Shown piece by piece: positions 1-12,944 of a stretch of DNA of 13,801 nt. The translations under genes and the position numbers were made by a program. Location: the IMG/VR virus record IMGVR_UViG_2534681759_000013; one strand, given 5' to 3'. The stretch comes from a virus (lineage: Duplodnaviria > Heunggongvirae > Uroviricota > Caudoviricetes). Each line of letters starts with the position of its first letter. Positions within the stretch are counted from its first letter, which is position 1. A model generated the notes under the pieces. That model was given only the letters and a program-made list of their open reading frames with translations, was not told the origin of the DNA and made no database searches.

Positions 1-288
1 TTACCGCCGCAGCCGTTCCGGCTTCTTCCACTGGTAAGTATTTTTCGCGCTCTCCCTCCGTTGTTGAGAACGGCGACGGTATGCCAGCAACTCAAGGACT
101 CTTGTTCGTATGTTGCGCATATCCACGCCGTTAAGCTCAATACCGTCACGGAGCATCACCTCAGCCACCACACGCGCGTAATTTTCAGCGGTGACTGTAT
201 CCGGCTGCGCGGCCTGTTCGTCAGCCAACTGGCTGATTCCACCAGCACAGCGGATTAATCGCAGTATTTCAGATTCGGTCATTATCAT
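1..288 (-). CDS. hypothetical protein (95 aa), last gene of the left packaging module
   Basis: Complete ORF in the six-frame track (ATG at 288..286, TAA at 3..1). Its start overlaps the stop of the upstream Nu1-like gene (stop 287..285), indicating translational coupling. GC-rich backbone-type composition. No motif I can name. Confidence 0.45.
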   Translation of the reverse strand: MIMTESEILRLIRCAGGISQLADEQAAQPDTVTAENYARVVAEVMLRDGIELNGVDMRNIRTRVLELLAYRRRSQQRRESAKNTYQWKKPERLRR

Positions 289-770
289 GCCTGTTTTGCG
301 ACCTCATTCACTACGTCATTTTTTACCATCCGGCTGATAATCTGATTACGCAAATCGTCAATAATTGACTGCACTCTGTTTACTGCCATCGGTTTAAGCC
401 CGGCATCACGTGCCAGAATATTGGGGAGTTTTGCCAGTTCCTCGCTTACGATTTCCCCCCATATAGCCATCTCTTTTCGCACATCATCGGCGGGTATGAG
501 TTGCGCCGTTTCCTGTTCGAACCTGAGGCGCTCACGTTCGGACTGATACCAGGCCTTACGGTCATGTGGCTCCATTTCTTCCAGTGATGCCGGAACGGGA
601 AGATCAAGAAAACAGGTCAGAATGTCAGTCACCCGATAGAGTTTTAGCTTGTCATGCCCTCCGGCTGGCTGGATGTTTTTCAGCCTTGCCGCCGCAGTCT
701 GACGACATATTCCCGCTATCGCCGCCAGTTGATTAATGTTCAGCATCAGATTTTTCAGTTCTCGATCCAT
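285..770 (-). CDS. Nu1-like small terminase subunit / DNA-packaging protein (N-terminal HTH)
   Basis: The track ORF 285..857 starts at a TTG; the first ATG is residue 30 (MDRELKNL...), giving 285..770 by codon arithmetic. The N-terminus (LMLNINQLAAIAGICRQTAAARLKN...KLYRVTD) resembles the winged-HTH cosB-binding domain of lambda Nu1 as I remember it. The gene lies directly downstream, on the same strand, of a cos-like site, as in lambdoid phages. A satellite Rpp-like TerS-interacting protein cannot be excluded. Confidence 0.6.
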   Translation of the reverse strand: MDRELKNLMLNINQLAAIAGICRQTAAARLKNIQPAGGHDKLKLYRVTDILTCFLDLPVPASLEEMEPHDRKAWYQSERERLRFEQETAQLIPADDVRKEMAIWGEIVSEELAKLPNILARDAGLKPMAVNRVQSIIDDLRNQIISRMVKNDVVNEVAKQA

Positions 771-949
771 ACCCGCTCCAGAATGTTTTAAACATGCATC
801 TTGCGAACAACTTTCAGAAGAGGTCAAAAAATGCGCTATATGTTGAGCATAAAACAAGCAAAATTAACATGCTAAAAATAAAAATACTTAAAATTCAATA
901 CAATGGAAAGATGATGATGACGAATGAAAATGCAAAAACTAGCCTTTTT

Positions 950-969
950 CCGCGCCGCTCCCGCCCCGT
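950..969 (-). other. cosN-like cohesive-end site, left module (diverged copy)
   Basis: The minus strand reads CCACGGGGCGGGAGCGGCGCGGAAAAAGGC, resembling the lambda cosN region (..TTACGGGGCGGCGACCTCGCGGGTTTTCGC..) as recalled from memory. It sits between the capsid-gene terminator and the Nu1-like gene, and the same block recurs at 4583..4608. Confidence 0.4.
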
Positions 970-996
970 GGCAGGTCACTACACCGGGAGGACCCG

Positions 997-1020
997 CAAA
1001 AAAAGGCGGCTATCGCCGCC
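997..1020 (-). terminator. rho-independent terminator after the left capsid gene
   Basis: On the minus strand, GGCGGC-GATA-GCCGCC forms a perfect 6-bp GC stem followed by a T7 run, beginning 8 nt after the capsid stop codon (1030..1028). Confidence 0.55.
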
Positions 1021-1027
1021 CTTGTTG

Positions 1028-2647
1028 TCATGCTCCACTCGATTTCAGTAATCCGCGATAGTCGAGGGCCGCGACACCTGCATCTATGCGCACCTTCCAG
1101 GCGACGCCATCAACAGTAAATCCCTCCTGCTCCTCAAGATATGGCGTATCAATACCATCAAGATAAGCGACCTCTATCGTGTCCATCCCCTTCGCCGCTG
1201 CCACATACCACTCCTTGTTATTGGCTTTATCAAGACGCGGCTCGACGATAACCTCTGCCATATCTTTCACCACGTTAATGATGCCGGGGTTCTGATTGAT
1301 AGTGCCTCCACCATCAATCGGAAAGAGTGATGACGATGACAGAATGGCGCGATGTGCGGCAGACTCCAGCGCAGCAGGGACCAGAACAAAAGCGGGGGTA
1401 ATATTCAGGGAGTCGCCGTTGCCATCCTCCTGTAATCGCATCAGCTTACGGGCTTCGTTAAGCCCCTCCATGTCCATATCCTTCGCAATAAGATTTTTAT
1501 GATCGGCATGGAATAACGCTTTACCATCCGTAAATTTGCCGTTGCTGGTTAACAGAAGATAAACCAGATTACCTACTGTTCTGGCGGCCGCACGCCCCAT
1601 CGCCATGGGGATTGTAGTTAACTGGGTCAGGTCATCGTTGATAATGGCCTGACGGGTAACAGAAAAAATATTACCGTATGTGGCCAGCGCAATAGGTACA
1701 CCTTTATCGCTGGTGGTGATGTATTTATATTCCGCACCTTCCGGTACTTTATCCAGCTTTGAAAAACCATTCAGACCAACGCGCTTTGCTTCATGAAAGT
1801 TTGAAAGCGATCCGGTACACGTCCATTTCTGGAACGTTTCGCCGCTGTCCTGCCAGCCTTTCAGCACTGATTTTTCAGCACCACCAGCCAGAATATGAGA
1901 AAAATCGCTGCTGCTGTGTGTGAAAGCTGCATTAACGACCTGCGAGCGATTTAAAAAATTGCCAACACTGATACCACGATCAGTTAGTGATGCCTGGGCC
2001 ATTTCAAAAAGGCTCATCATCGCGTAAGGATTTCCCCGCTCTGGGCGTTCATACCCGAGACGAGAATAAAGCCCCTGACGAATTGCATCGCCTGTTATGT
2101 TCCCGTTACCGGCATAAATATGAGTCGGGATATTTTTATTGGATGGCGTGGACTCGCGCCCCAGCTCGTTCAACAACTTTTCACGGGCCATCTCCGGTGT
2201 ACATGATGCATCCTCCAGGCACGCCATTTTGATCCCGTCGTAACGACTGCCGAACAGGCTAAACACTTCACTTATTCCGTTGATGCGCTTCTGTTCATTA
2301 CCAGCAATATTTGCCGCTCCCTGTGGCGGTGTAATCATTCCTTTAATGGTTTCCGGCATATGTAAAAAATCTCCTGTGCGTTTCGATTCAATTCGCGCCA
2401 TTACTCTGACGGATGGCAACAATTCATCAGCAAAACCGTGCTTAAGGCATTCTTTCCCATCCATCCAGGTTTCATCCTCCAGCATGGCGGTAATTTCCTG
2501 TGCTGATTTGCCCGTTTTTCTGGCATAAGCAGGGATTAACACGGTTTCCACCTTATCCAGCAAATCAGCATAATCACGCATATCGCCAGCATTTCCGCCA
2601 GAGATCCCCCACGGTTTATGGATCATCATGCAATACATTGAAATCAT
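1028..2647 (-). CDS. major capsid protein (Mu gpT-like) paralog, 5'-truncated: retains only the distal part of the ClpP-like protease region
   Basis: 539-aa ORF, about 80% identical by eye to residues ~103-638 of the 638-aa protein at 4671..6587. It begins MISMYCMMIHKPWGISGG, so it keeps the ClpP-type His motif (MIHKP) but lacks the upstream ~100 codons that carry the Ser motif GLAASMA. Sequence upstream of 2647 is unrelated to the paralog. An internal ATG at 2638 has a better-spaced AGGA. Confidence 0.6.
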   Translation of the reverse strand: MISMYCMMIHKPWGISGGNAGDMRDYADLLDKVETVLIPAYARKTGKSAQEITAMLEDETWMDGKECLKHGFADELLPSVRVMARIESKRTGDFLHMPETIKGMITPPQGAANIAGNEQKRINGISEVFSLFGSRYDGIKMACLEDASCTPEMAREKLLNELGRESTPSNKNIPTHIYAGNGNITGDAIRQGLYSRLGYERPERGNPYAMMSLFEMAQASLTDRGISVGNFLNRSQVVNAAFTHSSSDFSHILAGGAEKSVLKGWQDSGETFQKWTCTGSLSNFHEAKRVGLNGFSKLDKVPEGAEYKYITTSDKGVPIALATYGNIFSVTRQAIINDDLTQLTTIPMAMGRAAARTVGNLVYLLLTSNGKFTDGKALFHADHKNLIAKDMDMEGLNEARKLMRLQEDGNGDSLNITPAFVLVPAALESAAHRAILSSSSLFPIDGGGTINQNPGIINVVKDMAEVIVEPRLDKANNKEWYVAAAKGMDTIEVAYLDGIDTPYLEEQEGFTVDGVAWKVRIDAGVAALDYRGLLKSSGA

Positions 2648-2696
2648 CCTACTGATAAATAAGATTAAAAATCACAATACAGATACGTTTGAGCTT

Positions 2697-2721
2697 CATT
2701 GCAATACGCATTGCAATACAC
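2697..2721. repeat. tandem ATTGCAAT palindromes (CATTGCAATACGCATTGCAATACAC); second copy at 12779..12801
   Basis: Two copies of the self-complementary octamer ATTGCAAT at 2698..2705 and 2710..2717, 12 bp apart. About 21 of 23 positions match the block immediately upstream of the integrase start codon. Confidence 0.5.
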
Positions 2722-2870
2722 GGTTGCTGGGTGATTTCAAAAGATGAATGCTGCGAAGGATGGAAATTTGGGAACTAGGTGGTGAATAGCACAACAAAAA
2801 ATCAGAATTCTACTAGCTTAAAATGATGCAAAAAGCATTCGTGGCATCGCAAGCGCTGTACAATTCGTTC

Positions 2871-2876
2871 TATAAT
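2871..2876 (+). promoter_or_regulatory. candidate -10 hexamer (TATAAT) for plus-strand transcription into cargo cassette 1
   Basis: Exact TATAAT in the 420-bp intergenic region, about 45 bp upstream of a strong-SD short ORF and about 195 bp upstream of the 3070 start. No convincing -35 identified. Confidence 0.25.
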
Positions 2877-3069
2877 GAAGAAAATTTCTAACAGACTTTA
2901 TCATTCAAAGGTGGAGGAGATGACAGCAATGCAACATGCATCACGCTCATACTTGAATTGTAAAGCTATCGTTAGAATCACAGCCTTTTTGTTCCGCTGA
3001 TCTAACGATAAAACTAGTGGTAAAAGGTATATTTTTTAATTTTTCAGACGCTGGCGCGGGGTAATTAAA

Positions 3070-3372
3070 ATGAAATTTGTAAATATACGGTCATCCGAGT
3101 TGCCTGAAATAGATACCTTTGTAAAAGAATGTATCAACCAAGGACAATGGACTCTTTTCAAGGCCGAGAAGGGTGCAGTTAATGATAATAAAGTTGCTTT
3201 TTTTCTAAAGGCTGGCAAAGATTTCTTTGCATTAAATAACAGAGGAAGTGTTATCTCTGTATTTCAATCATTAGATTATAATCTTGAAATGAATGAGGTA
3301 ATTCATTTTTCAGATATTCCTAAACCTGAATCGTTGAGCAATATTGCTAGCTTAGGATTTGCTAGAGTTTAA
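3070..3372 (+). CDS. hypothetical small protein (100 aa), first gene of AT-rich cargo cassette 1
   Basis: Track ORF with ATG at 3070 preceded by GGGG about 10 nt upstream. AT-rich codon usage (many K/N/I/F) distinct from the backbone. An 18-bp gap separates it from the next gene on the same strand. No recognisable motif. Confidence 0.55.
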   Translation: MKFVNIRSSELPEIDTFVKECINQGQWTLFKAEKGAVNDNKVAFFLKAGKDFFALNNRGSVISVFQSLDYNLEMNEVIHFSDIPKPESLSNIASLGFARV

Positions 3373-3390
3373 TATATAAGGATATGTACG

Positions 3391-4281
3391 ATGGGATTAA
3401 TATCTGGAAATACACATTGGGTATTATTTTTACCTTGTGAGCACCAACCAGAAGATCGCCATGTTCAAGATTTAGTTCATGGCGTCTTTTGCTTAGAATC
3501 CTCAGGTATACAGCCATCTAATATTAGCATATATATTGATGGCCAAAATAGAGCCAACTTTAATAAGTTAATTTCGATTGCAACCCAACATAATTATACT
3601 ATCAAGCCTACATCTGAATTTTTCACCGACTGCGATACAAATAGTTATGAAAATCTAGTTATGTTTGTGACCGGACACGGAAGTATGAATGGTTTGGACT
3701 CTGCGCCGATCATAACCCCATACCGTTTATTGGACAGGTTAAAAAACACTCCTGTTCTCAAGCAAGCAATCGTTTATCTTGGTCAATGTTTCGCTGGTGT
3801 TTTCAACTACTTACCTGCTGGGCAGCGTAAGAGAGGTGAAGATGCCGACCCCGATGTCATTCTTATCGGGGCTACGAGTCTTCATGAAAGTTTGAGTAAT
3901 CCAACAACGGAAAATATTAATGGTATAGATTTTCCTTGGGTTGCAAATCAATTTTTATATCATGTATTTAAGTGGATATCATCCCCGAATGATATCGATG
4001 GGGATGGAAAACATACAGTAATTGACTCTTATAAGTATGCTGGAATCTCATCAAACATGACCAATCGTAGAATGAAGATAGGTTCTTTTGTAGCTTCGGT
4101 AGACTTGCATGAGCAATGGAATACTGCAAAAAAAGATCATGAAGCTAACTTGGCTGATCCACAAAAACTACTCCGTTATAGAGCATTAGATCAGCAATAC
4201 TATGAAAAACTGAACATTAACTATATTCATCAAGAGTGCTGGATATTAAATTCTGTACCTGCACAATCTGTTGAATTCTAA
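3391..4281 (+). CDS. caspase-like (clan CD) cysteine peptidase-like protein with EF-hand-like Ca-binding loop
   Basis: 296 aa. A hydrophobic strand followed by His-Gly (LVMFVTGHGS, H96; codon 3676..3678) and a second hydrophobic strand followed by Cys (AIVYLGQCFAG, C133; codon 3787..3789) match the His/Cys dyad layout of caspase/metacaspase/legumain-type peptidases. DIDGDGKHTVID (residues 201-212, nt 3991..4026) fits the DxDxDGxhxxxD/E EF-hand loop pattern. AAGGA RBS 8-12 nt upstream of the ATG. Confidence 0.6.
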   Translation: MGLISGNTHWVLFLPCEHQPEDRHVQDLVHGVFCLESSGIQPSNISIYIDGQNRANFNKLISIATQHNYTIKPTSEFFTDCDTNSYENLVMFVTGHGSMNGLDSAPIITPYRLLDRLKNTPVLKQAIVYLGQCFAGVFNYLPAGQRKRGEDADPDVILIGATSLHESLSNPTTENINGIDFPWVANQFLYHVFKWISSPNDIDGDGKHTVIDSYKYAGISSNMTNRRMKIGSFVASVDLHEQWNTAKKDHEANLADPQKLLRYRALDQQYYEKLNINYIHQECWILNSVPAQSVEF

Positions 4282-4285
4282 TCCT

Positions 4286-4453
4286 TTACTTTTTTGAATA
4301 GATTGCTGCAAGTGCCGTTTTGAGGTCGTAATTTCGGCACTTGCAACTGCAACCAGAAATAGGGCGAACGTTTGACAAACGTTTAGCTATAGTCTGCCGA
4401 TGAAATCCAGTCACTTCCGCCAACTCACTTAAATTTAGAACTATCTTTTTCAT
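4286..4453 (-). CDS. short Nu1-like HTH DNA-binding protein (55 aa); apparently a truncated small-terminase gene
   Basis: Not in the ORF track (below its length cut-off); found by hand translation: MKKIVLNLSELAEVTGFHRQTIAKRLSNVRPISGCSCKCRNYDLKTALAAIYSKK. AAGGG SD 5-6 nt upstream of ATG 4453..4451, TAA at 4288..4286. It aligns across its whole length to the N-terminal HTH region of the 285..770 protein. It lies downstream of the cos-like site, and its stop is 4 bp from the convergent stop of the 3391..4281 gene. Confidence 0.5.
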   Translation of the reverse strand: MKKIVLNLSELAEVTGFHRQTIAKRLSNVRPISGCSCKCRNYDLKTALAAIYSKK

Positions 4454-4582
4454 CATAATTACCCTTCAGATGTCGAACAAATAACATACAATCCATCATC
4501 TTTTCCACTTTTATAAAGTTTTACCTAATAAAATTCAGTTAGTTAGCGAATGATGATGATGTCTATAAAATTCAAAAACTAG

Positions 4583-4608
4583 CCGTTTCCCGCGATGCCG
4601 CCGCCCCG
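4583..4608 (-). other. lambda-like cosN cohesive-end site of the satellite
   Basis: The minus strand reads CCTGCCACGGGGCGGCGGCATCGCGGGAAACGGCTAGTTTTTGAATTTTAT. Against lambda cos as recalled (CAGGTTACGGGGCGGCGACCTCGCGGGTTTTCGCTATTTATGAAAATTTT), the 11-mer ACGGGGCGGCG and the 7-mer TCGCGGG are identical and the flank is similar. It is followed about 140 bp later by the Nu1-like HTH gene on the same strand. Confidence 0.5.
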
Positions 4609-4634
4609 TGGCAGGCATCCCCGCCGGGAGTACC

Positions 4635-4662
4635 TTTTAAAAAAGGGCAGCATCTGCCGCCC
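4635..4662 (-). terminator. rho-independent terminator after the protease-capsid gene
   Basis: On the minus strand, GGGCGGC-AGAT-GCTGCCC forms a 7-bp stem (one G-U pair) followed by TTTTTT, 8 nt after the capsid stop (4673..4671). Homologous in position and form to 997..1020. Confidence 0.55.
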
Positions 4663-4670
4663 TCCTGTCG

Positions 4671-6587
4671 TCATGCCGCCCCGCTCGACTTCACCATGCC
4701 CCGATAATCCAGCGCCGCCACGCCAGCATCGATACGCACCTTCCATGCAATACCGTCCACAGTGAAGCCCTCCTGCTGTTCCAGATACGGCACGTCCATT
4801 CCATCCAGATATGCCACCTCGATAGTGTCGGTGCCTTGCGCTGCAGTGACGTACCACTCCTTGTTGTTGGCCTTGTCCAGTCGCGGCTCAACCACTACCT
4901 GCGCCATATCCTTCACGACGTTGATAATGCCTGGGTTCTGGTTCAGCATACCGTTCTGGTCTACCGGGAACAGCGAAGATGATGACAGCACAGCTCGATT
5001 GGCTGCGCCTTCCAGCGCGGCAGGTACAAGGATATAGGCTGGGATAACATTAATAGGATCGCCGTTCGCATCCTCCTGCAGACGCATAGCCTTACGGGCC
5101 TCATTGAGTCCGTCTGTATCCATCCCTTTAGCGATGAGGTTTTTATGGTCGGCGTGGAACAACGCTTTACCATCTGTGAATTTGCTGTTGGCGGTCAGTT
5201 GCAGGTAGACCAGATTGCCAACCGTTCGTGCGGCGGCACGCCCCATTGCCTGTGGAATGGTCGTGAGCTGGCTCAGGTCATCGTTGATAATGGCCTGGCG
5301 TGTAACAGAGAAGATGTTTCCATAGGTGGCCAGCGCGATCGGCACACCGCTGTCGCTGGTAGTGACATATTTGTATTCAGCACCTTCCGGGACTTTATCC
5401 AGTTCTGAAAAACCATTCAGACCGACACGTTTAGCCTCATGGAAATTCGACAGAGAACCGGTCTTTGTCCACTGCTGGAAAGTTTCCCCGCTGTTCTGCC
5501 AGCCAGTCAGCACCGACTTTTCAGCACCACCAGCCAGGATATGAGAGAAATCACTGGTGCTGTGCGTAAATGCCAGGTTCACGATCTGCGAGCGATTCCC
5601 GAAACCACTGACGCTGATACCACGATCCACCAGCGAAGCCTGCGCCATTTCAAACAGACTCATCATGGCGTAAGGGTTTCCCCTTTCGGCGCGTTCGTGA
5701 CCCAGACGGGCAAAAAGCCCCTGGCGGATAGCATCGCCGGTAATGTTGCCGTTACCTGCGTAAATGTGCGCGTTACTGGTTTTATCCGATGGGGTCGAGG
5801 TCTTACCCAGTGCCGTCAGCAGCATGTCTTTTGCTTTTTCAGGCGTGCAATCCACATCCTCCAGACACTGCATCTTGAGAGAATCATGCTTGCCGCCGAA
5901 CATGGCAAACAGATCCTTAATCTCGTTGATGCGGTTCTGTTCCGGTACAGCGCTACTGGTGGAACCTTTCGGGCTGGTGATCATCCCTTTAATTTCTTTT
6001 GGCATATGCTCAAAATCCTCAATTCGTTTTGACTCAATACAGGCCATTGCCCTGACGGCGGGTAACAATTCGTCAGCAAAACCCTGCGCTACACATTCGC
6101 GGCCATCCATCCATGTTTCATCCTCCAGCATTTCCGCCAGTGATTCGGCTGATTTACCCGTTTTGCGTGCATATGCCGGGATCAAGACACTTTCGACTTT
6201 ATCCAGAAGTTCGGCGTAGTCGCGCATGTCGTTGGCGTTCCCACCAGAGATTCCCCACGGTTTGTGAATCATCATGAGTGCGTTTTCGGGCATAACGATA
6301 CGGTCGCCAGCCATTGCAATAACTGACGCCATAGACGCGGCGAGACCGTCGATCTGCACTGTAATTTTTGCCGGGTGTTTATTCAGAAGGTTATAGATAG
6401 CGATGCCGTCAAAAACATCGCCACCGGGTGAATGAATGTGCAGGCTGATATGGGAGATATCGCCTAGGGCTTTCAGGTCTTCGGAGAACTGCTGCGCCGT
6501 AATACCCCAGCCGCCGATCTCTTCGTAGATGCTGATATTGGCGCTGGTGCCATCGCTGGCCGCTTTGATGGTGTACCAGCCTTTCAT
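4671..6587 (-). CDS. ClpP-like prohead protease fused to major capsid protein (Mu gpT-like)
   Basis: 638-aa ORF. The N-terminal ~180 aa carry ClpP/S49-type motifs (GLAASMASVIAMAGD with Ser85; MMIHKPWGISGG with His108). The C-terminal ~450 aa resemble Mu-like major head subunits as I recall them. The start ATG (6587..6585) overlaps the stop of the upstream small gene (ATGA). Confidence 0.85.
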   Translation of the reverse strand: MKGWYTIKAASDGTSANISIYEEIGGWGITAQQFSEDLKALGDISHISLHIHSPGGDVFDGIAIYNLLNKHPAKITVQIDGLAASMASVIAMAGDRIVMPENALMMIHKPWGISGGNANDMRDYAELLDKVESVLIPAYARKTGKSAESLAEMLEDETWMDGRECVAQGFADELLPAVRAMACIESKRIEDFEHMPKEIKGMITSPKGSTSSAVPEQNRINEIKDLFAMFGGKHDSLKMQCLEDVDCTPEKAKDMLLTALGKTSTPSDKTSNAHIYAGNGNITGDAIRQGLFARLGHERAERGNPYAMMSLFEMAQASLVDRGISVSGFGNRSQIVNLAFTHSTSDFSHILAGGAEKSVLTGWQNSGETFQQWTKTGSLSNFHEAKRVGLNGFSELDKVPEGAEYKYVTTSDSGVPIALATYGNIFSVTRQAIINDDLSQLTTIPQAMGRAAARTVGNLVYLQLTANSKFTDGKALFHADHKNLIAKGMDTDGLNEARKAMRLQEDANGDPINVIPAYILVPAALEGAANRAVLSSSSLFPVDQNGMLNQNPGIINVVKDMAQVVVEPRLDKANNKEWYVTAAQGTDTIEVAYLDGMDVPYLEQQEGFTVDGIAWKVRIDAGVAALDYRGMVKSSGAA

Positions 6588-6796
6588 TTTTCACCTTCCG
6601 TTACAGCGAAGCCATTTTCATCAAGCCATGCGTTGACTGCGTGCCGGACTACCTGTGCCACTCCGGGCAATGGCTGGACAGGAAGATTTTTCAGATGATC
6701 GTTGCGGTATTGCTTAAGGCGTACAACGGTTTGCGCGTCCAGATGTACGGAGCCGCCTTTAGTCTCGCCAGTGTTTAAATCGTTAATGTCACTCAT
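6584..6796 (-). CDS. hypothetical small protein (70 aa) translationally coupled to the protease-capsid gene
   Basis: The track ORF 6584..6844 starts at an alternative codon; the internal ATG at 6796 (MSDINDLNTGETKGG...) has AGAGGA 5 nt upstream. Its stop overlaps the capsid start. Confidence 0.5.
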   Translation of the reverse strand: MSDINDLNTGETKGGSVHLDAQTVVRLKQYRNDHLKNLPVQPLPGVAQVVRHAVNAWLDENGFAVTEGEK

Positions 6797-6941
6797 GATG
6801 TCCTCTACTGTATAAGTAAACAGGTTATGATGATTGATCACCAAAAGTGGTAAGTGAACAATTTTTTATCTGAAAAATAGATTTATGATGAAAAAAAATT
6901 TTTGTATGGTCTTAGATTGGAATAAACAGAAAGGTTAAAAA

Positions 6942-7655
6942 ATGGATCTCACTCGTAATGACGAACTCCTTTTGAATGATGCAGCTAGACGCTCATTTCG
7001 GGATATGGCAGACCAGGATTATCTCTCAGCTCGTCTGTGTTATAAGCACAAATTGAATTTTCAATTTTTATGGCTTTCGCAACAAGCCGTAGAGAAATAT
7101 ATTAAAGCGATTTTACTTTATAATAGAGTTCCAGTATTAAAATTAAATCACAATTTAAACAAAGGGCTGGCAAAGATTAAAGAAATCCCATATCTTGAAT
7201 TAGACCTAGATGTAAAAAGTGAGCGATTCATAGATTATCTCAATGAGCAGGGCCCAAATAGATACTTCCAAAACACTATGTATACCGAAGGCTTTGAAAT
7301 TATAACCTTGGATAGAACCATCTGGGAATTAAGAAGATACTGCAAGCCACTAAACTACTCAATTACTAACCCAAAAGGTGAAGTGATAGAAATGTTAGAA
7401 CATGAATTGAGTAGCATAAAAAATTCGAAGTCGAGGCCTTATCATACGTTCAAACTATTTGGAGGTTACTTAGAAAAAAGATTAAAAGATAATAAATTCA
7501 ATCAGGGCGACATACTTACATGGAAAAATTTATTTTTTGGAAGAAATAAAAAAAATGCAATTAGAATTGGAAGATCAATGCATGTAACTCATCCAACTCA
7601 TTATATGTACCCAAATGCAACGGAAATGCTCAGTCGTTTCTTTAAAATAAAATAA
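6942..7655 (+). CDS. hypothetical protein (237 aa), AT-rich cargo cassette 2; possible HEPN-like all-alpha N-terminus (weak)
   Basis: Track ORF with AAAGG RBS, strongly AT-rich, on the strand opposite the backbone and divergent from the capsid operon. The N-terminal segment (QQAVEKYIKAILLYNRVPVLKLNHNLNKG) has an R-x7-H arrangement loosely reminiscent of the HEPN Rx4-6H motif, but this is not convincing without a profile search. Confidence 0.55.
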   Translation: MDLTRNDELLLNDAARRSFRDMADQDYLSARLCYKHKLNFQFLWLSQQAVEKYIKAILLYNRVPVLKLNHNLNKGLAKIKEIPYLELDLDVKSERFIDYLNEQGPNRYFQNTMYTEGFEIITLDRTIWELRRYCKPLNYSITNPKGEVIEMLEHELSSIKNSKSRPYHTFKLFGGYLEKRLKDNKFNQGDILTWKNLFFGRNKKNAIRIGRSMHVTHPTHYMYPNATEMLSRFFKIK

Positions 7656-7755
7656 TTACATTCCAATTTTATTTACCGCTGTTAAATAAGTAAGGTATAT
7701 CTTTATTTATCGACATTGATAATCATGAAAGAGTATATCTTTTTTGCCGCACCTA

Positions 7756-7962
7756 GCGCATTTCTCACCGCACTTTCATCCCGCGCACTTAGGTGCGCAA
7801 TCCAACATGCACCGTACAGCCATTAAAACCAGTAATGGGGCGGGTTTGCAGGTGATTAATGCCAAACCGCGCACTTTCTTCGTATATACATGGAAAAAGT
7901 GCGGCAAGTGTATGTTTTATGAGCATTTCGCGCATCACGCGCATTTCTTGCCGCACTTTTCA
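7756..7962. repeat. iteron-like repeat cluster, putative satellite origin of replication
   Basis: GCGCATTTCTCACCGCACTTTCA (7756..7778) and GCGCATTTCTTGCCGCACTTTTCA (7939..7962) are near-identical direct repeats. Related copies include the palindrome GCGCACTTAGGTGCGC (7783..7798), CGCGCACTTTCTTCG (~7868..7882) and an inverted copy AAAAAGTGCGGCAAGTG (7895..7911). The cluster lies immediately 3' of the replication ATPase gene, where PICI-type origins usually sit. Confidence 0.4.
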
Positions 7963-7964
7963 GG

Positions 7965-9374
7965 TTAAATTATCGTGATATCTCCTGAATCATCGATAAA
8001 GATAATATTCTCCCTAACGAGTTTATCAAGCCAGCGTTTAAAACCTTTGCGGCCGTTCTCTCCAAACAGAGTGGTAATATCATCACGTATAACAGAGACA
8101 TTACACGGTTCACCTTTGGCTTTTCGGCTCCGGATTGACTGCCAGAGTGCAGCGTGGTTCCCAGTCAGGTGCTTGATATCAGCAAGTTCCGGATCAGGTT
8201 CTCGTGCCTCTCGTGGCAGGTCCTGCACCACCAGCGACGAAATAAGCTCACCATCACGATCTGTGAACAATTCGATCGGACGCAGATCGAATGCGGCCTG
8301 TTTCGGCTCCTCCGCATCTTTCATCTTCGTACAGGTCAGGATTATCGCCCCACCATCCCCCTCGCGCCGGACATTGAACTCTGCATCGAGCGCAGCCCTG
8401 AAAGCACTGGAACCACGTGCGCCTTTGGTATCGTCTTTTCCTGAATGATGCACCACCAGCAACGTGGCGCCAGTCTCACGCTTGATGACGTCGCAGCCTT
8501 CAATAAACGCCCCCATGTCACGAGCATCGTTTTCATCGTTACCACCAAAGCACCGCGCTAGAGTATCTATGACAATCAGGCGAACCGGCTGCCCCGTTTT
8601 GGACTTAACGTCACGCGCAGCTTTGATCATCTCCTGCATTTCCTCACGGCGAACCGGGAAAACCGGACGGTTTACCAGATACAGATTATTTAGTTTCACA
8701 CCATGTTTTTTCTCCCACGCCTTTATTCGCCGCGGAACGCCAATACCACCTTCACCTACTACGTACATCACAGCGCCGGCTGATACCGACTTCCCCGCCC
8801 ACTTCATCCCGGCTGCAACGTGACAAGCCCAGGACACCACCAGAAAACTTTTATACGAACCGCTCGGGCCGTAGATACTGCTCAGGCTGTTAGCGGGAAG
8901 ATAACTTTTTAACGTGTAATCCTGCTCCTGATCGTACCCATCAGAGCCCACGCTTAAAGGAAGGCTGTGCCGCAGTGACTCCTCTCGCACAGAGACTTCA
9001 ACCTGTTCACGCAGACGAGAAAGATATTCCCTCCAGTCCTCAGGCTCATGGTCGGGGATTCCTTTATACAATTTGGCATCCTGCACGCCAGCCAGCGCCA
9101 GCTTTTCAGCAATGTTATTAATCTGGATAGGCTTTATATTCCCTGCCAGGTAAATCCGCACGGCACGACGGCCATCATCCACAATGCGCAGGTTATCCAG
9201 CTCTGCCAGTTGTTTTGGCCCAAGGTAAACAGGAGGAGTGGTATCTTCGGCAATCTGTTTACCAAGCCCCTCTTCCCAACCCTTCGCATGGGCGTATGCT
9301 TCTGACCCGGCAAAAATAACTGCCTCCGTGAATTTTTCTTTTGGCAGGTGTTTCAGATTCGGTGCGTTTTTCAT
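7965..9374 (-). CDS. replication initiator / helicase-type RecA-fold P-loop ATPase (RepA/DnaB-like) with an unknown N-terminal domain
   Basis: 469-aa ORF. Walker A (IYGPSGSYKSF), Walker B-like (RLIVIDTLARCFGG) and a downstream LLVVHHSGKDDTKGARGSSAF segment are typical of AAA_25/RepA-like replicative ATPases found in PICI and P4-like primase-helicase genes. Its start overlaps the stop of the upstream gene. Confidence 0.85.
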   Translation of the reverse strand: MKNAPNLKHLPKEKFTEAVIFAGSEAYAHAKGWEEGLGKQIAEDTTPPVYLGPKQLAELDNLRIVDDGRRAVRIYLAGNIKPIQINNIAEKLALAGVQDAKLYKGIPDHEPEDWREYLSRLREQVEVSVREESLRHSLPLSVGSDGYDQEQDYTLKSYLPANSLSSIYGPSGSYKSFLVVSWACHVAAGMKWAGKSVSAGAVMYVVGEGGIGVPRRIKAWEKKHGVKLNNLYLVNRPVFPVRREEMQEMIKAARDVKSKTGQPVRLIVIDTLARCFGGNDENDARDMGAFIEGCDVIKRETGATLLVVHHSGKDDTKGARGSSAFRAALDAEFNVRREGDGGAIILTCTKMKDAEEPKQAAFDLRPIELFTDRDGELISSLVVQDLPREAREPDPELADIKHLTGNHAALWQSIRSRKAKGEPCNVSVIRDDITTLFGENGRKGFKRWLDKLVRENIIFIDDSGDITII

Positions 9375-9694
9375 TTCAGCCCCTTATCCCATCCGTCAGA
9401 TCCAACACTCAGCGGCAGAGAAGAGCGCAGAGCAGCGATTTTTTTACGCACGTTTTCTTTTACGGTCTCCTGCCACTCCCTGCTTTCCTCAGGGAGATAA
9501 ATAAATTCTTTTCGGAACCGGTACTCAGAAAAAATACACTCATGTGAATACCCATCCCGGACATACGTAATACGGCTATCCGTTATGCATGTGACAGTAA
9601 TTTTTTCTCCGCGAGAATCTTTCCAGCGACTGTTAAGCTCGATTTTTGGTTGAGCGATGCCCTCAGGCTGAACCTGATTGAATTTTTTAATCAT
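9371..9694 (-). CDS. hypothetical protein (107 aa); C-terminus shares the SLPLSVGSDG linker motif with the replication ATPase
   Basis: Track ORF with AAGGA SD 8 nt upstream of ATG 9694. The stop is coupled to the ATPase start. The C-terminal ~30 aa are similar to residues ~110-145 of the 7965..9374 protein. Confidence 0.55.
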   Translation of the reverse strand: MIKKFNQVQPEGIAQPKIELNSRWKDSRGEKITVTCITDSRITYVRDGYSHECIFSEYRFRKEFIYLPEESREWQETVKENVRKKIAALRSSLPLSVGSDGWDKGLK

Positions 9695-9698
9695 GAAT

Positions 9699-9878
9699 TT
9701 ATTCCTTGTCGGTAGCCGTTAAACCGTATGCTTCAGCAGCCTGACGAACTGCCTGGATAAAACCTTCCGGTGTGGCCACGATTTCGTCCGGACGAAGGCG
9801 GCGCTCTGTAACCTGACCGTTTTTAACCGTCACCAGTACGCGGATCTCGTAATCAGCAGGTAAGGCGGAGTTATCCAT
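9699..9878 (-). CDS. hypothetical small protein (59 aa)
   Basis: Internal ATG ([15 protein letters not shown]...) of track ORF 9699..10004. It overlaps the stop of the upstream gene (caTGGAtaa arrangement) and ends 4 nt before the next start, so it is tightly packed in the operon. Confidence 0.4.
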
Positions 9879-10158
9879 GGCGCACCTCCATTGGCACAGC
9901 TTCATTGCTGTAAGGATCGCTACCCAAGATGCTCCATAGGGTGCGATGTTCAGGATCCATAAACGACACTGAGAGCGGGCTTTCTGTTCGGATTTTGGCG
10001 GCAAAGGTCAAGTCCCAGCCGCAGAACTTTGCACGGGCAGTATCTTCAGTGTCTGCAATGGTGCGCAGAACTATCGGGAGACAAGAGTGACCTCGCGGCG
10101 TGCCAAGGAATAGCCATGTAAATTTTGGGCGAGTTTGGGTATGCTGTTGATCAGCCAT
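9871..10158 (-). CDS. hypothetical protein (95 aa), first gene of the replication operon
   Basis: Internal ATG at 10158 ([13 protein letters not shown]...) of track ORF 9871..10215, with GAGGT SD about 7 nt upstream. Divergent from the RHH gene across an operator-like intergenic region. Confidence 0.45.
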
Positions 10159-10251
10159 AACTGTTACCTCAACTAACGGTTTGTGGTTAGACGTCCCGTG
10201 AGTGGTTCCAAGCACTTCCGGGACGTTGCTTTTTTCACGTCAAGCGTGATA

Positions 10252-10289
10252 ACGTACGTAATAGCAACATCCTATGAGGTTACGTACGT
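10252..10289. promoter_or_regulatory. paired ACGTACGT palindromes, candidate operator in the divergent promoter region
   Basis: The palindromic octamer ACGTACGT occurs at 10252..10259 and 10282..10289 (30 bp centre to centre), between the divergently oriented 10158 start (minus) and 10292 start (plus). The second copy sits just upstream of the RHH gene ATG. Confidence 0.45.
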
Positions 10290-10291
10290 AC

Positions 10292-10483
10292 ATGTCAACA
10301 ATAAAACGAGATAAAACACCCAAAGGAGAGGGCTTGTCTCCGACATTCCAAATCCGAATAAGTCCTGAATTGCGCCAGCAGATGAATGAAGCTGCTGAGC
10401 GTGAGGGAGTAAGTCTTGGTAATTGGCTTAAAGGTCTGGCTAGAAATGAACTTATTAAGCAAGGAATTGAACCTAAAGGTTAG
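10292..10483 (+). CDS. ribbon-helix-helix (Arc/CopG-like) DNA-binding protein, candidate repressor
   Basis: Second ATG of track ORF 10274..10483 (the first ATG lies inside the operator palindrome). 63 aa with a beta-strand then two helices (TFQIRISPEL / RQQMNEAAEREG / VSLGNWLKGLARNEL), typical of RHH regulators. GAGGT about 11 nt upstream. Confidence 0.6.
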   Translation: MSTIKRDKTPKGEGLSPTFQIRISPELRQQMNEAAEREGVSLGNWLKGLARNELIKQGIEPKG

Positions 10484-10536
10484 TTTTCACAAGCACTCTT
10501 TGATTTTTTCAGTAAAAATTAAATTAAGGAAATTCT

Positions 10537-11247
10537 ATGGATGATTTATATACACCATCTGAATATTTTATGTTCGTAGAGAAATTTGATCATTACTTCC
10601 CACGAAAAAGCCCTTTTAACTCATTATTATTCGAGTTCAATTATAGATTAGAAGATATAGTTGTTTTTCATCGCTTTGTTATCAACACCTATTCAAAAAA
10701 TAAAAAAGCAATTGATGTACAATATAATAAATTTAATTTTCTTGATGATAAACAAAAAAATTCCCTTTCTGATGACGAGTATGAAGCGTATCAACTCAGG
10801 TTTGCAAGGCATATGGAATACATTAACCATCAAACTGATTTGAATGAAAAAGCGTCTTACATTGCTAACGATAGTGTCGTTATAAACTTATGGGCCATGA
10901 ATGAACAATATATGACTAGAGGATTGGCCAACCTAATATCTCAAAAAGAAAATAAAAATTTAAATGAAGTTAAAACGCCTTACAAATGGGATACAATCAA
11001 AAGTAAATTCCTGTCATATGGAATCAACTTTGAGACATTGCCATCTTATGATGACATTAATGAATGTAGAGTACTGAATAATAAAATAAAACATCTGAAC
11101 ATAGTAGATTCTGGTTTAGAAGTTTTCCCTCCCTTCAAAGGTAAGCTTAACGAATCACTTACTGGCATGGCCTTTCCTCTTCAAAAATATATCATAGGCT
11201 CTCATCACTTTATAGGAATGCTATTAGAAGAGTGCTCATTAAAATAA
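10537..11247 (+). CDS. hypothetical protein (236 aa), AT-rich cargo cassette 3, downstream of the RHH gene
   Basis: Track ORF with AAGGAA RBS 6-12 nt upstream, strongly AT-rich, 53 bp after the RHH stop on the same strand. No recognisable catalytic motif. Confidence 0.6.
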   Translation: MDDLYTPSEYFMFVEKFDHYFPRKSPFNSLLFEFNYRLEDIVVFHRFVINTYSKNKKAIDVQYNKFNFLDDKQKNSLSDDEYEAYQLRFARHMEYINHQTDLNEKASYIANDSVVINLWAMNEQYMTRGLANLISQKENKNLNEVKTPYKWDTIKSKFLSYGINFETLPSYDDINECRVLNNKIKHLNIVDSGLEVFPPFKGKLNESLTGMAFPLQKYIIGSHHFIGMLLEECSLK

Positions 11248-11251
11248 ACGC

Positions 11252-11288
11252 ATGGCAACGTATAATTTATCGCTTAATACGTTGCCAT
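11252..11288. terminator. hairpin between convergent genes (candidate bidirectional terminator)
   Basis: Perfect 11-bp inverted repeat ATGGCAACGTA / TACGTTGCCAT (11252..11262 and 11278..11288) with a 15-nt loop. It is 5 nt after the 10537..11247 stop and 6 nt after the alpA stop, with U-rich tracts on both transcribed strands. Confidence 0.5.
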
Positions 11289-11293
11289 ATCTC

Positions 11294-11530
11294 TCATTTA
11301 TTTTTATCGAACCAATCTCCTTTAATCCAAGCTTGCATCTCTGAGAGCCGGTAAGCAACTGCTGACGGCCCAATTTTGATTCGCTTAGGAAATTTTCCTT
11401 CCTGTTCCATGCGCCAGCGCGTTGAGTTAGACAACGTAGTCATAGCCCGGCATTCAGGTTCGCGAATCATTCTGTCAAGGTCAGGCATGTACTGGAGATC
11501 TTCTTTTTTCACAACGGATAACATAGCCAT
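11294..11530 (-). CDS. alpA: AlpA-family phage regulatory protein (excisionase-like HTH)
   Basis: The track ORF starts at GTG 11539; the first ATG is at 11530 (MAMLSVVKKE...) with AAGGAG 8 nt upstream. The segment AMTTLSNSTRWRMEQEGKFPKRIKIGPSAVAYRLSEMQAWI matches the AlpA/Xis-like HTH pattern. It lies immediately downstream of the integrase gene. Confidence 0.7.
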   Translation of the reverse strand: MAMLSVVKKEDLQYMPDLDRMIREPECRAMTTLSNSTRWRMEQEGKFPKRIKIGPSAVAYRLSEMQAWIKGDWFDKNK

Positions 11531-11531
11531 A

Positions 11532-12767
11532 TCAGGCACTCCTTTTCTTAATTACTTTTACTGTATTTTCTTCACCCACCAGCCCATCAAGGTAGTCAAC
11601 CCATCGGTCCAGTGCTTCTTGCTTTTGAGGGATATACTTGCTGCGGTTATAGACTCCGGCCACGCCCTTTATGGTATGCCCCAGCAGCTGCTCTACGACC
11701 ATAAAATCAACGCCCATATCGTTAAGGCTTGTCGAGAACGTTCGTCTCAAATCATGTAATGACCAGCGTTTTTCATGTTTCAGAGAGATAAAGTTTGTGC
11801 ATCCCATCGTACTGACGGTTGAATCAGATTTCAGTTCGCCAAATATGTAGCCTCTCCTTTTAGTCTCTTCGTGCAGGTTTACGATCCACTGGCGCATTTT
11901 TTGAGGAACGGGGCGAATAATTTCTTCGCCGTTTTTACTGTGCTCTTTAGGTACTGTCCAAATCCACTTATCGAAATCCCACTCATCCCATGTAGATAAA
12001 CGCGCCTCACTCAGCCTGCAGCCAAACACGAGACACAAAATCGCCATCCTTTTTTTGTAATTCATTACACGGGTTTTGCCTTTACCATGAAAGTACACTC
12101 CCCACAGATCGGCGACGTAGCTTTCCTCAAGTAGCCGCTCTCTCTTGTTCTGATACTTACCGATATCACCAGGGCTCAAATCATCAAGCACATTGCACCG
12201 CACATACTGGCGCACCCGGCAGTATTTGAAGATCTGCTTTAACTCAATCAGCATTGCAGCAGACTGAACCGGCGCGATTTTCTTTATGCGGTCGAAGCAC
12301 TTGATCCAGTCTGACAGACCGCATTTCTCGACAGGAAACCCGCCGATGTAGGGAAAAATGTATCTCTCATAACGGCGATAGAGCCGTAAAGTCTCTTTGC
12401 GCTTTTCCCTGGCATAGTTATCAAACCAGTAATCGATAGCGTTCTTCACAGTTACTGGAGTGAACAGGTTCTCTTTGGTGAGTTTGTTCTCTATTCGTGG
12501 GTCGAGTCCCTGAGATAGCCATGCCCGGCACTCGTCCCTTTTCTCTCTGGCCTGTTTAAGGGTCATATCTGGATACTTGCCTAACGTCATCCAGACGGGG
12601 GCGCTTTGTCGGCCGGAATGTCTGAAGAAATACACAAAGCTCACAGTGCCACTAACGCTCACTCTGACAGACAGTCCACGACCATCTGCCACCATCTTTT
12701 GACGCGGCTGGGGTTTACCATGTAAGGCCTTTAACGCCTTGTCGCTTAACTTGTTCTCGCCCGCCAT
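11532..12767 (-). CDS. int: tyrosine recombinase / phage integrase, P4-type
   Basis: 411-aa ORF with an N-terminal arm-binding-type region (GRGLSVRVSVSGTVSFVYFFR) and C-terminal catalytic signatures (HDLRRTFSTSL ... LLGHT ... YNRSKY). GAGG SD 5-8 nt upstream of the ATG. Confidence 0.9.
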   Translation of the reverse strand: MAGENKLSDKALKALHGKPQPRQKMVADGRGLSVRVSVSGTVSFVYFFRHSGRQSAPVWMTLGKYPDMTLKQAREKRDECRAWLSQGLDPRIENKLTKENLFTPVTVKNAIDYWFDNYAREKRKETLRLYRRYERYIFPYIGGFPVEKCGLSDWIKCFDRIKKIAPVQSAAMLIELKQIFKYCRVRQYVRCNVLDDLSPGDIGKYQNKRERLLEESYVADLWGVYFHGKGKTRVMNYKKRMAILCLVFGCRLSEARLSTWDEWDFDKWIWTVPKEHSKNGEEIIRPVPQKMRQWIVNLHEETKRRGYIFGELKSDSTVSTMGCTNFISLKHEKRWSLHDLRRTFSTSLNDMGVDFMVVEQLLGHTIKGVAGVYNRSKYIPQKQEALDRWVDYLDGLVGEENTVKVIKKRSA

Positions 12768-12778
12768 AAAACCTCATT

Positions 12779-12801
12779 CTGCAATACACATTGCAATACA
12801 C
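12779..12801. repeat. second copy of the ATTGCAAT tandem-palindrome block (CTGCAATACACATTGCAATACAC), 12-34 bp upstream of the integrase ATG
   Basis: Near-identical to 2699..2721. It contains the palindromic octamer ATTGCAAT at 12790..12797 and a degenerate copy 12 bp upstream. Confidence 0.5.
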
Positions 12802-12944
12802 ACTTAACTGCAACGCCGAAAAACAGTAGAAAAGCAATGCAAACAACACCTCTTCTTTCGTAAGCGCATCATTTAAACCGTCTTTCGCCTCCCTTTCCTG
12901 TTTCCGATACTAATGTCCATTTTCGCAGTAAAAGGACATTTAAG

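Follow-up and report, generated by a model that had tools for sequence, protein, structure and literature searches.

The window (the whole stretch of DNA that was analysed, 13,801 nucleotides; IMG/VR record IMGVR_UViG_2534681759_000013) is Escherichia coli chromosome, and positions 1..12859 are 100% identical to strain 90-9280. It holds two nested phage satellites, A and B. This report concerns a small gene of satellite B, located between the satellite's cos site and two convergent cargo genes. The product, 56 amino acids (aa) in length (MMKKIVLNLSELAEVTGFHRQTIAKRLSNVRPISGCSCKCRNYDLKTALAAIYSKK in the open reading frame (ORF) listing), corresponds to the DNA-binding domain (DBD), a winged helix-turn-helix (wHTH), of a DUF1441-type terminase small subunit (TerS). 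The gene and the features that precede it are, in minus-strand order:

4671..6587, minus strand: ClpP-like prohead protease/major capsid fusion gene of satellite B, 638 aa (Pfam CLP_protease and Phage_capsid_4; RefSeq)
4637..4658, minus strand: intrinsic terminator after the capsid gene (terminator scan)
4624..4634, minus strand: cosQ-like element GGTACTCCCGG, present in all aligned cos regions
4581..4611, minus strand: cosN-like site CCACGGGGCGGCGGCATCGCGGGAAACGGCT, which aligns with cosN of lambda/EcCICFT073, mEp460 and Gifsy-2
4457..4588, minus strand: cosB-like region, GC 29%, with three R-like repeats
4563..4550, minus strand: R3, direct cosB-like repeat GACATCATCATCAT
4500..4493, minus strand: R2, inverted cosB-like repeat GATGATGG
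4480..4463, minus strand: R1, direct cosB-like repeat TTGTTCGACATCTGAAGG
4467..4462, minus strand: Shine-Dalgarno sequence GAAGGG, 5 nt 5' of the ATG (read from the sequence)
4286..4456, minus strand: DBD-only TerS-like gene, 56 aa (ORF listing), encoding the wHTH domain and nothing more

The first-pass annotation had described a 55-aa ORF that starts at position 4453. The ORF is real; however, 4453 is its second ATG, and the first is located at 4456. In the relative L009 the second methionine codon is AGG and the first ATG is intact; the first ATG is therefore the likelier, conserved start, and the gene was corrected to 4286..4456. Diverged relatives have a purine-rich Shine-Dalgarno sequence at the equivalent place (GGGGGAGA, GGAG, and AGGAGG). 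The stop codon TAA occupies 4288..4286, and 4281 is the last position of the convergent 296-aa gene; this confirms the 4-bp gap reported earlier between the ORF and the stop of this caspase-like gene. The remark that annotation had missed the gene is correct for RefSeq record NZ_CP024240, where the ORF is left unannotated, but not for NZ_CP127262 (H123) and the NCBI protein records, which annotate the identical ORF as 'DUF1441 family protein'.

BLASTP aligned 34 aa of the 56-aa protein with the 161-aa protein of satellite A (285..770) at 44% identity (E 2e-9), and the multiple alignment spans residues 5-53. The 56-aa protein also matched positions 13-63 of 183 in PHROG phrog_141, 'terminase small subunit' (E 1.8e-10), and positions 1-46 of 147 in Pfam DUF1441 (PF07278; E 8.8e-7); the DUF1441 score of 29.4 bits falls under the whole-protein gathering score of 35.1, because just one third of the profile is present. 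The precomputed Pfam label of the cluster representative P0001 is PF07278. The match to the TerS N-terminus is well above chance, and the ORF stops at the boundary of the DBD, 3 residues past the conserved A-I-Y helix. The homology to the N-terminal HTH of the 161-aa protein, as claimed by the first-pass annotation, is borne out. Its label 'Nu1-like' has to be dropped: the 161-aa protein belongs to DUF1441/phrog_141 (E 1e-56) and not to Pfam Nu1, is 65-70% identical to the TerS of mEp460 over residues 1-150, lacks an acidic C-terminal tail, and resembles Nu1 in fold alone. Membership in the Nu1 family, or in the Rpp family of satellite packaging proteins, was rejected on sequence grounds; phmmer searches of the PDB with the 161-aa and 56-aa proteins returned neither gpNu1 nor an RppC chain at E up to 1-10.

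A full-length DUF1441 protein (~150-180 aa) consists of the DBD, a central helical region and a C-terminal part. The 56-aa protein has neither the coiled-coil/oligomerisation part nor the acidic tail of phage TerS, and a tblastn search of 2500..4700 (word size 2, E up to 100) for what might be left of a DUF1441 C-terminus or of p95 returned the known N-terminal match alone. As expected for a TerS gene, the 56-aa gene lies directly downstream of cosN and cosB with R repeats; however, the satellite has no terL, the gene for the terminase large subunit (TerL), and the C-terminal region that would bind TerL is absent.

The AlphaFold2 model of the 56-aa protein, calculated from a 57-row alignment (pLDDT 80), consists of strand, helix, helix, wing, and helix. 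In Foldseek searches of the PDB, small-terminase DBDs were matched with TMq values of 0.67-0.69 (7lwr/7lxs), 0.64 (6hn7_B, the lambda TerS N-terminus from the RppC complex), and 0.60 (gpNu1, 1j9i). The E-values are weak (0.08-0.8), as expected at 56 residues, and regulators of the MerR family and excisionases (BldC, MtaN, TorI, RdfS, Xis) were matched by fold with comparable scores. In an alignment made by hand rather than computed by a tool, the conserved Y43-D44 and the helix with L49, I52 and Y53 would correspond to the helix-3 segment of gpNu1. This segment forms the DBD dimer interface that Rpp uses (PMC6739421); if the correspondence holds, the part needed for DBD-DBD pairing would be present in the 56-aa protein.

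The cos region aligns base for base with those of lambda/EcCICFT073, mEp460, Gifsy-2, an O157:H7 prophage, and satellite A; the alignment set also included the cos of a Kluyvera helper. The cosQ-like element is comparable to the GGTCCTTTCCGG segment in the EcCICFT073 cos region. By analogy to lambda, a 12-nt cohesive end, GGGCGGCGGCAT, is predicted at 4606..4595 on the minus strand, with putative nick positions. The repeat search found direct repeats at 4469-4482/4558-4571 and inverted repeats at 4494-4503/4549-4558. As read here, the order of R3 (direct), R2 (inverted) and R1 (direct) is the arrangement of a lambdoid cosB (for the R repeats see Murialdo & Feiss 2022, PMC9026076); the same layout was found in relatives of the satellite, Gifsy-2, mEp460, and the O157 prophage. 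The 56-aa gene begins ~125 bp past the lambda-type cosN, and the cosB-like stretch lies between them. A presumptive cosB at 4454..4580 had been proposed from the window alone; the presence of cosQ and cosN at 4634..4581, followed by the three R-like repeats, supports this proposal. An Rfam scan of the window gave no matches.

The R repeats of the satellite are of the type CATCATC, those of mEp460 are CATCACCAC, and those of Gifsy-2 are CACTGAA. The O157 prophage also has the CATCATC type, and so does the Kluyvera helper that harbours a related satellite. The window contains nine copies of CATCATC versus 2.6 expected, five of them inside the two cosB regions. In the genome scan, both loci with a short form had the inverted GATGATG, and the 22 with a longer DUF1441 ORF (21 complete, 162-175 aa, and one cut by the locus end) all lacked it; the one exception seen outside the short forms was the O157 prophage.

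The 12-nt cores of the cohesive ends were compared between the window (4589..4670) and L002, L009, L040, L025, and L070. Despite near-identical cosB regions and short genes, the cores vary (GGGCGGCGGCAT, GGGCGGCGCGCT, and GGGCGGCGAGAT); that of L070, from Salmonella, is quite different from the others. The core of the Kluyvera helper differs from that of its embedded satellite (GGGCGGCTGGCT against GGGCGGCGGCAT).

A word-indexed homologue search gave just two relatives of the 56-aa protein, both short and both with the cargo found in the window. This result would have wrongly suggested a rare truncation, and it was corrected through exhaustive HMMER and profile searches. The nearest relatives in the HMMER search (45-64% identity) are mostly short and terminate 0-15 residues past the conserved A-I-Y, with tails that are unrelated between lineages; the closest full-length relative is 43% identical. 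The profile search with the short forms returned 80 clusters (90% identity), none of them called at more than 108 aa and with cores of ~53-63 aa, from at least ten enterobacterial genera (Klebsiella, Salmonella, Citrobacter, Enterobacter, Raoultella, Kluyvera, Pluralibacter, Dickeya, Pectobacterium, and E. coli). Many members are named 'DUF1441 family protein' by NCBI. E. coli alone gives a misleading picture of this family: among its complete genomes, the short form occurs in nine records alone, all with the very element described here.

The family motif, ELAxVTGxHRQT[IV]xKRL...GSSxKxKxYDLKxALxxIY with a stop within 15 residues, is present in the window copy, which retains all six family-invariant residues (L12, R20, R26, L27, G35, and Y43) and deviates in S36C and in a wing that reads KCR instead of KRK. 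In every examined context with upstream sequence, the gene is located ~210 bp after the satellite's ClpP-capsid gene and past cos; the window shares the placement that is typical for the family, with cosQ/cosN and then R3, R2 (inverted GATGATG) and R1 ahead of the gene. What comes next on the 3' side differs between contexts: it may be a lambda gpI-like, a tape-measure-like or a p95-like gene, or convergent cargo. In the P0053 lineage (54 aa), convergent cargo follows directly, as it does in the window. In many related satellites, the start of the gpI-like gene (L012-L016, L028, and L030, about 8230..8826 or 6195..6800) or of the tape-measure-like gene (L020, 429..1487) overlaps the stop of the short gene. 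These genes are helper late genes that the satellites have captured, and they may be translationally coupled to the short gene. A search of the literature for DUF1441 returned phage genome notes alone, one of which names it terS; searches that combined phage-inducible chromosomal islands (PICIs) with cosB turned up no account of a DBD-only protein.

The DUF1441 TerS proteins of phages (mEp460, Gifsy-2, Fels-1, VT1-Sakai, and Stx2) have 158-177 aa and are followed by terL; those of mEp460 and Gifsy-2 carry an acidic tail. Among satellites, the lengths form a series of reduction, from 153-162 aa without an acidic tail (satellite A and P0009) through 122 aa (P0011) to 54-63 aa. In a neighbour-joining tree of the DBD (49 alignment columns), the main clade of short forms had 65% bootstrap support, the Salmonella group with 60 aa joined the full-length satellite proteins P0009/P0011 (68%), and monophyly of all short forms was recovered in 1% of the replicates. 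On these 49 columns, the tree hints at two independent reductions to the DBD, one in the main clade and one in the Salmonella 60-aa group. The reduction from a full-length TerS-like protein is old and possibly repeated.

In deep comparisons (window versus L012, L016, and L020), the proportion of synonymous differences (pS) is 0.78-0.91, which is saturated, and the proportion of nonsynonymous differences (pN) is 0.22-0.33. This divergence indicates long-term purifying selection that acts on the protein and not on the DNA. The possibility that selection on cos DNA alone keeps the ORF was rejected, because synonymous sites are saturated and amino acids are conserved. The gene shows few or no differences within the P0003 and P0053 lineages, whereas its neighbours there differ by up to 10%; the P0053 gene is identical in sequence across elements with upstream regions that differ by up to 8%.

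Identity to the Klebsiella element L002 is 82% in the 3' part of the capsid gene, 69.5% in the terminator/cosN region, and 99-99.8% from cosB to the left end of the satellite, with 99.2% for the cosB region alone. The recombination breakpoints of other elements coincide with cosN and with the short gene's 3' end, and the 12-nt cosN core differs among elements with a common cosB and short gene. Judged by these identities, cosB and the short gene are inherited as one block, the flanks of which are swapped by recombination on both sides. A single inherited unit of this kind is the pattern that a cognate pair of protein and site would show.

Our leading reading, to which we give about an even chance, is that the 56-aa ORF is a functional-type member of a conserved, DBD-only DUF1441 family and would be a minimal, Rpp-like cosB-binding factor that acts on the helper terminase. 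The carriers of the family are PICIs and helper-embedded satellites that also carry the ClpP-capsid fusion gene. The first-pass annotation had raised the possibility of a stand-alone domain that is retained deliberately; at the level of the family, conservation, position, and co-inheritance with the cosB-like repeats argue for it. The 56-aa protein probably steers or blocks the packaging enzyme of the helper phage. It would bind the CATCATC R repeats of the adjacent cosB-like region, and would act through the full-length TerS of the helper, because it cannot recruit TerL itself. It could pair with the DBD of the helper TerS, as Rpp does, and would then be a minimal Rpp; or it could be a competitor of the helper TerS at cosB. 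On balance, the helper terminase is predicted to be biased towards satellite DNA, away from helper DNA, or both.

Among the closest known systems are the Rpp proteins (RppA/B/C), carried by cos PICIs of Gram-negative bacteria, for example EcCICFT073 (Fillol-Salom et al. 2019, PMC6739421; Murialdo & Feiss 2022, PMC9026076). The wHTH of RppC itself binds the lambda TerS DBD (PMC6739421). Both Rpp and the 56-aa protein are encoded by a satellite, in a gene directly after a lambda-type cosQ/cosN/cosB and behind the satellite capsid gene; EcCICFT073 carries rppA in the slot equivalent to that of the 56-aa gene. Both have an N-terminal wHTH resembling the TerS DBD (in the 56-aa protein according to the AlphaFold2 model and Foldseek), and neither has a TerL-binding domain, so that both would have to work through the helper TerS. 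A homologous gene of ~95 aa follows in EcCICFT073 and in satellite A, but not in satellite B. By sequence the two are not detectably similar: RppA hits phrog_57 (lambda-type TerS), and the 56-aa protein hits phrog_141/DUF1441. Rpp proteins have 139-154 aa, with a C-terminal dimerisation/coiled-coil part (residues ~65-139) that strengthens the heterocomplex; the 56-aa protein is a DBD without this region. Furthermore, the cosB of Rpp-encoding PICIs is unlike that of the helper, whereas the helper-type phages examined here have the same R type as the satellite.

The DBD is homologous to the wHTH of the phage DUF1441 TerS proteins (33-51% identity), with a conserved HRQT recognition-helix motif, a conserved G-S-x-x-K-x-K-x-Y wing, and a common cosN-R3-R2-R1-gene geometry. 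The phage proteins differ in their length, their central helical region, and the terL gene that comes next; the 56-aa protein has neither this region nor a terL. The full-length TerS-like proteins of satellites (161 aa in satellite A, 153 aa in P0009) occupy the same slot after the ClpP-capsid gene and cos, and P0009/P0011 share the Y-D...A-I-Y helix-3 signature and form the sister group of short forms. However, the full-length satellite proteins keep the central and C-terminal helices, without an acidic tail, and their cosB lacks the inverted GATGATG.

Several observations weigh against a minimal, Rpp-like factor. DNA binding, interaction with TerS, and the effect on packaging are all inferred. 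The C-terminal helices of Rpp out-compete TerS homodimers (PMC6739421), and the 56-aa protein has none. The one helper/embedded-satellite pair examined, from Kluyvera (L054 and L040, contiguous), and the O157 prophage have the CATCATC type, so that a switch in specificity is perhaps unneeded. No sigma-70-like promoter was predicted between the capsid terminator and the 56-aa gene. The window gene differs from that of L009 by 10 nonsynonymous changes and 1 synonymous change, and its pN, 0.077, is close to the pS of the neighbouring genes (0.082-0.087); in the same comparison, the pN/pS of the 296-aa and 100-aa genes is 0.03-0.05. Near-invariant positions have changed: S36C in the window, D44G in P0001, and T16A in L009. 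This pattern in the sub-lineage fits relaxed constraint and diversifying selection equally well, and the counts are too small to tell the two apart. The main caveat is that this particular copy may be drifting or diversifying.

The alternative that survives best is a decaying remnant: the DBD-only family may have been useful in the past or may just be tolerated, and in the sub-lineage of the window, where the gpI-like neighbour is gone and caspase-like cargo has been acquired, the ORF would be out of selection and a pseudogene in the making. We consider this unlikely, though it deserves some weight. It would account for the counts against L009 and for those against L002 (2 nonsynonymous to 0 synonymous), for the five protein haplotypes of a very shallow clade, which differ in amino-acid changes only, some of them at near-invariant positions, for the change of the wing from KRK to KCR, and for the omission of the ORF from most RefSeq annotations. 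However, ORF, start codon, Shine-Dalgarno sequence and stop are intact in all haplotypes of the sub-lineage (E. coli, Klebsiella, and Enterobacter), and the six invariant residues are retained. The P0053 gene also abuts convergent cargo and yet is identical across elements. An excess of nonsynonymous changes in the regions of DNA contact is also expected from an arms race over specificity, and the departure from neutrality has a P of about 0.2 at these small counts.

A free DBD might also be a pure competitor or decoy, as the first-pass annotation had suggested: it would occupy the R sites of the helper cosB and block terminase assembly, with no heterodimer and no direct aid to packaging of the satellite. 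The shared CATCATC type of the helper-type phages, the lack of TerL-recruiting and oligomerisation parts, and the frequency with which satellites interfere with helper packaging (PMC6739421) are consistent with this role. Nevertheless, we think it improbable, because the satellite's own near-identical cosB would be blocked equally, unless the affinities differ, and strict co-inheritance with the adjacent cosB suggests a cognate site in cis rather than a weapon against the site of the helper.

We would expect even less that the protein is a small MerR/Xis-like wHTH regulator of transcription or recombination (of late genes, cargo genes, or excision) that is merely derived from a TerS DBD. The fold search does return MerR-family proteins and excisionases at comparable scores, and in relatives the gene overlaps downstream late genes, with which it could be translationally coupled. 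However, the sequence homology is specific to TerS DBDs, the exact phage geometry of cosN, cosB and terS is kept, cosB on the upstream side stays constant next to widely varying genes downstream, and excision and regulation in the satellite are already served by AlpA.

Finally, a recent truncation of a full-length terS-like gene through insertion of, or replacement by, the caspase-like cargo, also proposed in the first-pass annotation, is very improbable and already contradicted: the 4-bp distance to the convergent stop, the full-length paralogue in the neighbouring satellite, and the tails after A-I-Y that differ between lineages would fit it, but the short forms, which are 42-65% identical, have equal core lengths and entirely different downstream genes, the searches gave no close full-length relative (43% identity for the nearest), 2500..4700 holds no C-terminal remnant, and the short gene and the cargo are equally AT-rich and move together. 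Related elements contain a conserved gene of ~55 aa, in 80 short clusters with varied neighbours, and longer homologues exist at greater depth (P0009/P0011); the short gene is therefore better regarded as an old evolutionary reduction. The cargo at 3070..4281 merely abuts the 56-aa gene and replaced, at most, what once followed it; this may have been a gpI-like gene, lost without truncation of terS.

The remaining features of the window that bear on its setting are:

about 2620..12860: satellite B (annotated record NZ_CP024240 and junction sequences)
2620..2632: left end of B (attR junction), inside A's ClpP/capsid gene
3070..3372, plus strand: convergent cargo, 100-aa gene (ORF; phrog_30138)
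3391..4281, plus strand: convergent cargo, 296-aa caspase-like gene (ORF; motifs ..VTGHGS.. and ..LGQCFAG..)
about 880..1000: cos of satellite A, which adjoins the 161-aa gene
285..770, minus strand: full-length TerS-like gene of satellite A, 161 aa, DUF1441 (Pfam, PHROG)
1..288: 95-aa ORF, phrog_1561, homologue of the last gene of EcCICFT073 (93 aa), which directly follows rppA

Satellite B is inserted within satellite A's ClpP-capsid gene, in the same orientation and at about codon 108 (..MMIH|KPW..). The Klebsiella and L009 elements are homologous to the window as far as 2612-2619, and A's capsid frame resumes with ..MMIHKPWG. The C-terminal fragment of the split gene is located at 1028..2647, and the N-terminal fragment lies beyond the integrase of B (NZ_CP024240; L001 24929..25258). 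Satellite B consists of integrase, AlpA, a HicB-like gene with a 236-aa cargo gene, Icd-like, DUF4222, and RepA/AAA_25 helicase genes, followed by HEPN cargo, a 70-aa gene, the ClpP-capsid fusion, cos, the 56-aa gene, and the convergent 296-aa and 100-aa cargo genes. The remainder of satellite A in 1..2630 comprises the capsid gene's C-terminal part, the 161-aa DUF1441 gene, and the 95-aa gene; A adjoins a tRNA annotated as tRNA-Ile beside mug. Relatives of B sit in the capsid genes of Gifsy-like prophages.

Nested satellites of this kind have already been published as helper-embedded satellites (HES) at C:CLP_protease:110, among them HES-invaded tRNA-Met PICIs (Tommasini, Mageeney & Williams, bioRxiv 10.1101/2022.07.18.500453). 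In the parts of that preprint consulted, the position and orientation of satellite B in the ClpP-capsid gene are those described for HES, and a target gene that belongs to a satellite beside tRNA-Ile resembles the published tRNA-Met composite. The same parts state that such satellites lack terS and make no mention of a DBD-only gene.

The cosN of satellite A is identical to that of mEp460, whereas R3 differs (CATCATCATC versus CATCACCAC). The 161-aa protein may be the full-length counterpart of Rpp for mEp460-like helpers. In Salmonella satellites, the gene after the 60-aa DBD-only gene is a shorter relative of the 95-aa ORF (L070, 6202..6408). The 95-aa ORF, as yet uncharacterised, is a conserved partner of the cos-proximal gene.

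The two cargo genes at 3070..4281 (GC 33-37%) are 99.7-99.8% identical in Klebsiella and, at the pN/pS given above, are under strong purifying selection; Pfam, PADLOC and NCBIfam scans of both proteins gave no match. The pair is a candidate defence system of a type not yet known, in the slot that in relatives holds the gpI-like gene, other cargo, or both. Satellite B has two further AT-rich (GC 31-33%) cargo slots on the plus strand: 6942..7655 encodes a 237-aa HEPN-domain protein, and 10274..11247 encodes a HicB-like gene of 69 aa and a 236-aa protein without a family match. Relatives hold other genes in these two slots (putAbiC, DUF3800, and a gene for a 449-aa protein). A repeated GCAATACA/CATTGCAATACA motif is located close to both ends of B (2690..2720 and 12780..12800); it is probably equivalent to the 'doubled DNA sequence motif' reported for the attP of this integrase clade. 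After 12859, the window departs from strain 90-9280, and a 216-aa ORF at 12945..13595 with Pfam HTH_Tnp_1 indicates an insertion sequence element at or near attL of B in the source strain.

To our knowledge, Rpp is the sole worked-out route by which Gram-negative cos satellites capture a helper terminase, and this terminase has a lambda-type (Nu1) TerS. A bolder extension of the Rpp-like reading, which we offer tentatively and think more probably wrong than right, is that the DBD-only proteins are a second, independently evolved minimal solution to the same problem. A free DBD of 55-60 residues would then be enough to reprogram or poison a DUF1441-type terminase through DBD-DBD pairing at cosB, and the fast nonsynonymous change of the recognition helix and wing and the strict co-inheritance with cosB would record an arms race over packaging specificity. 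The helpers meant here are Gifsy, mEp460, and Stx/O157 prophages.

For annotation, the consequence is a correction, as such ORFs are often skipped or labelled 'DUF1441' alone. If the proposed function is true, a stand-alone DBD of 56 residues would define the minimal requirement for hijacking a terminase, with a very small pair of protein and site (56 aa and ~130 bp). It would also explain the mobilisation of ClpP-capsid and helper-embedded satellites with their defence cargo. The helpers with a DUF1441 TerS include Salmonella's Gifsy prophages and, in E. coli, many Stx/O157 prophages, all of them of medical importance.

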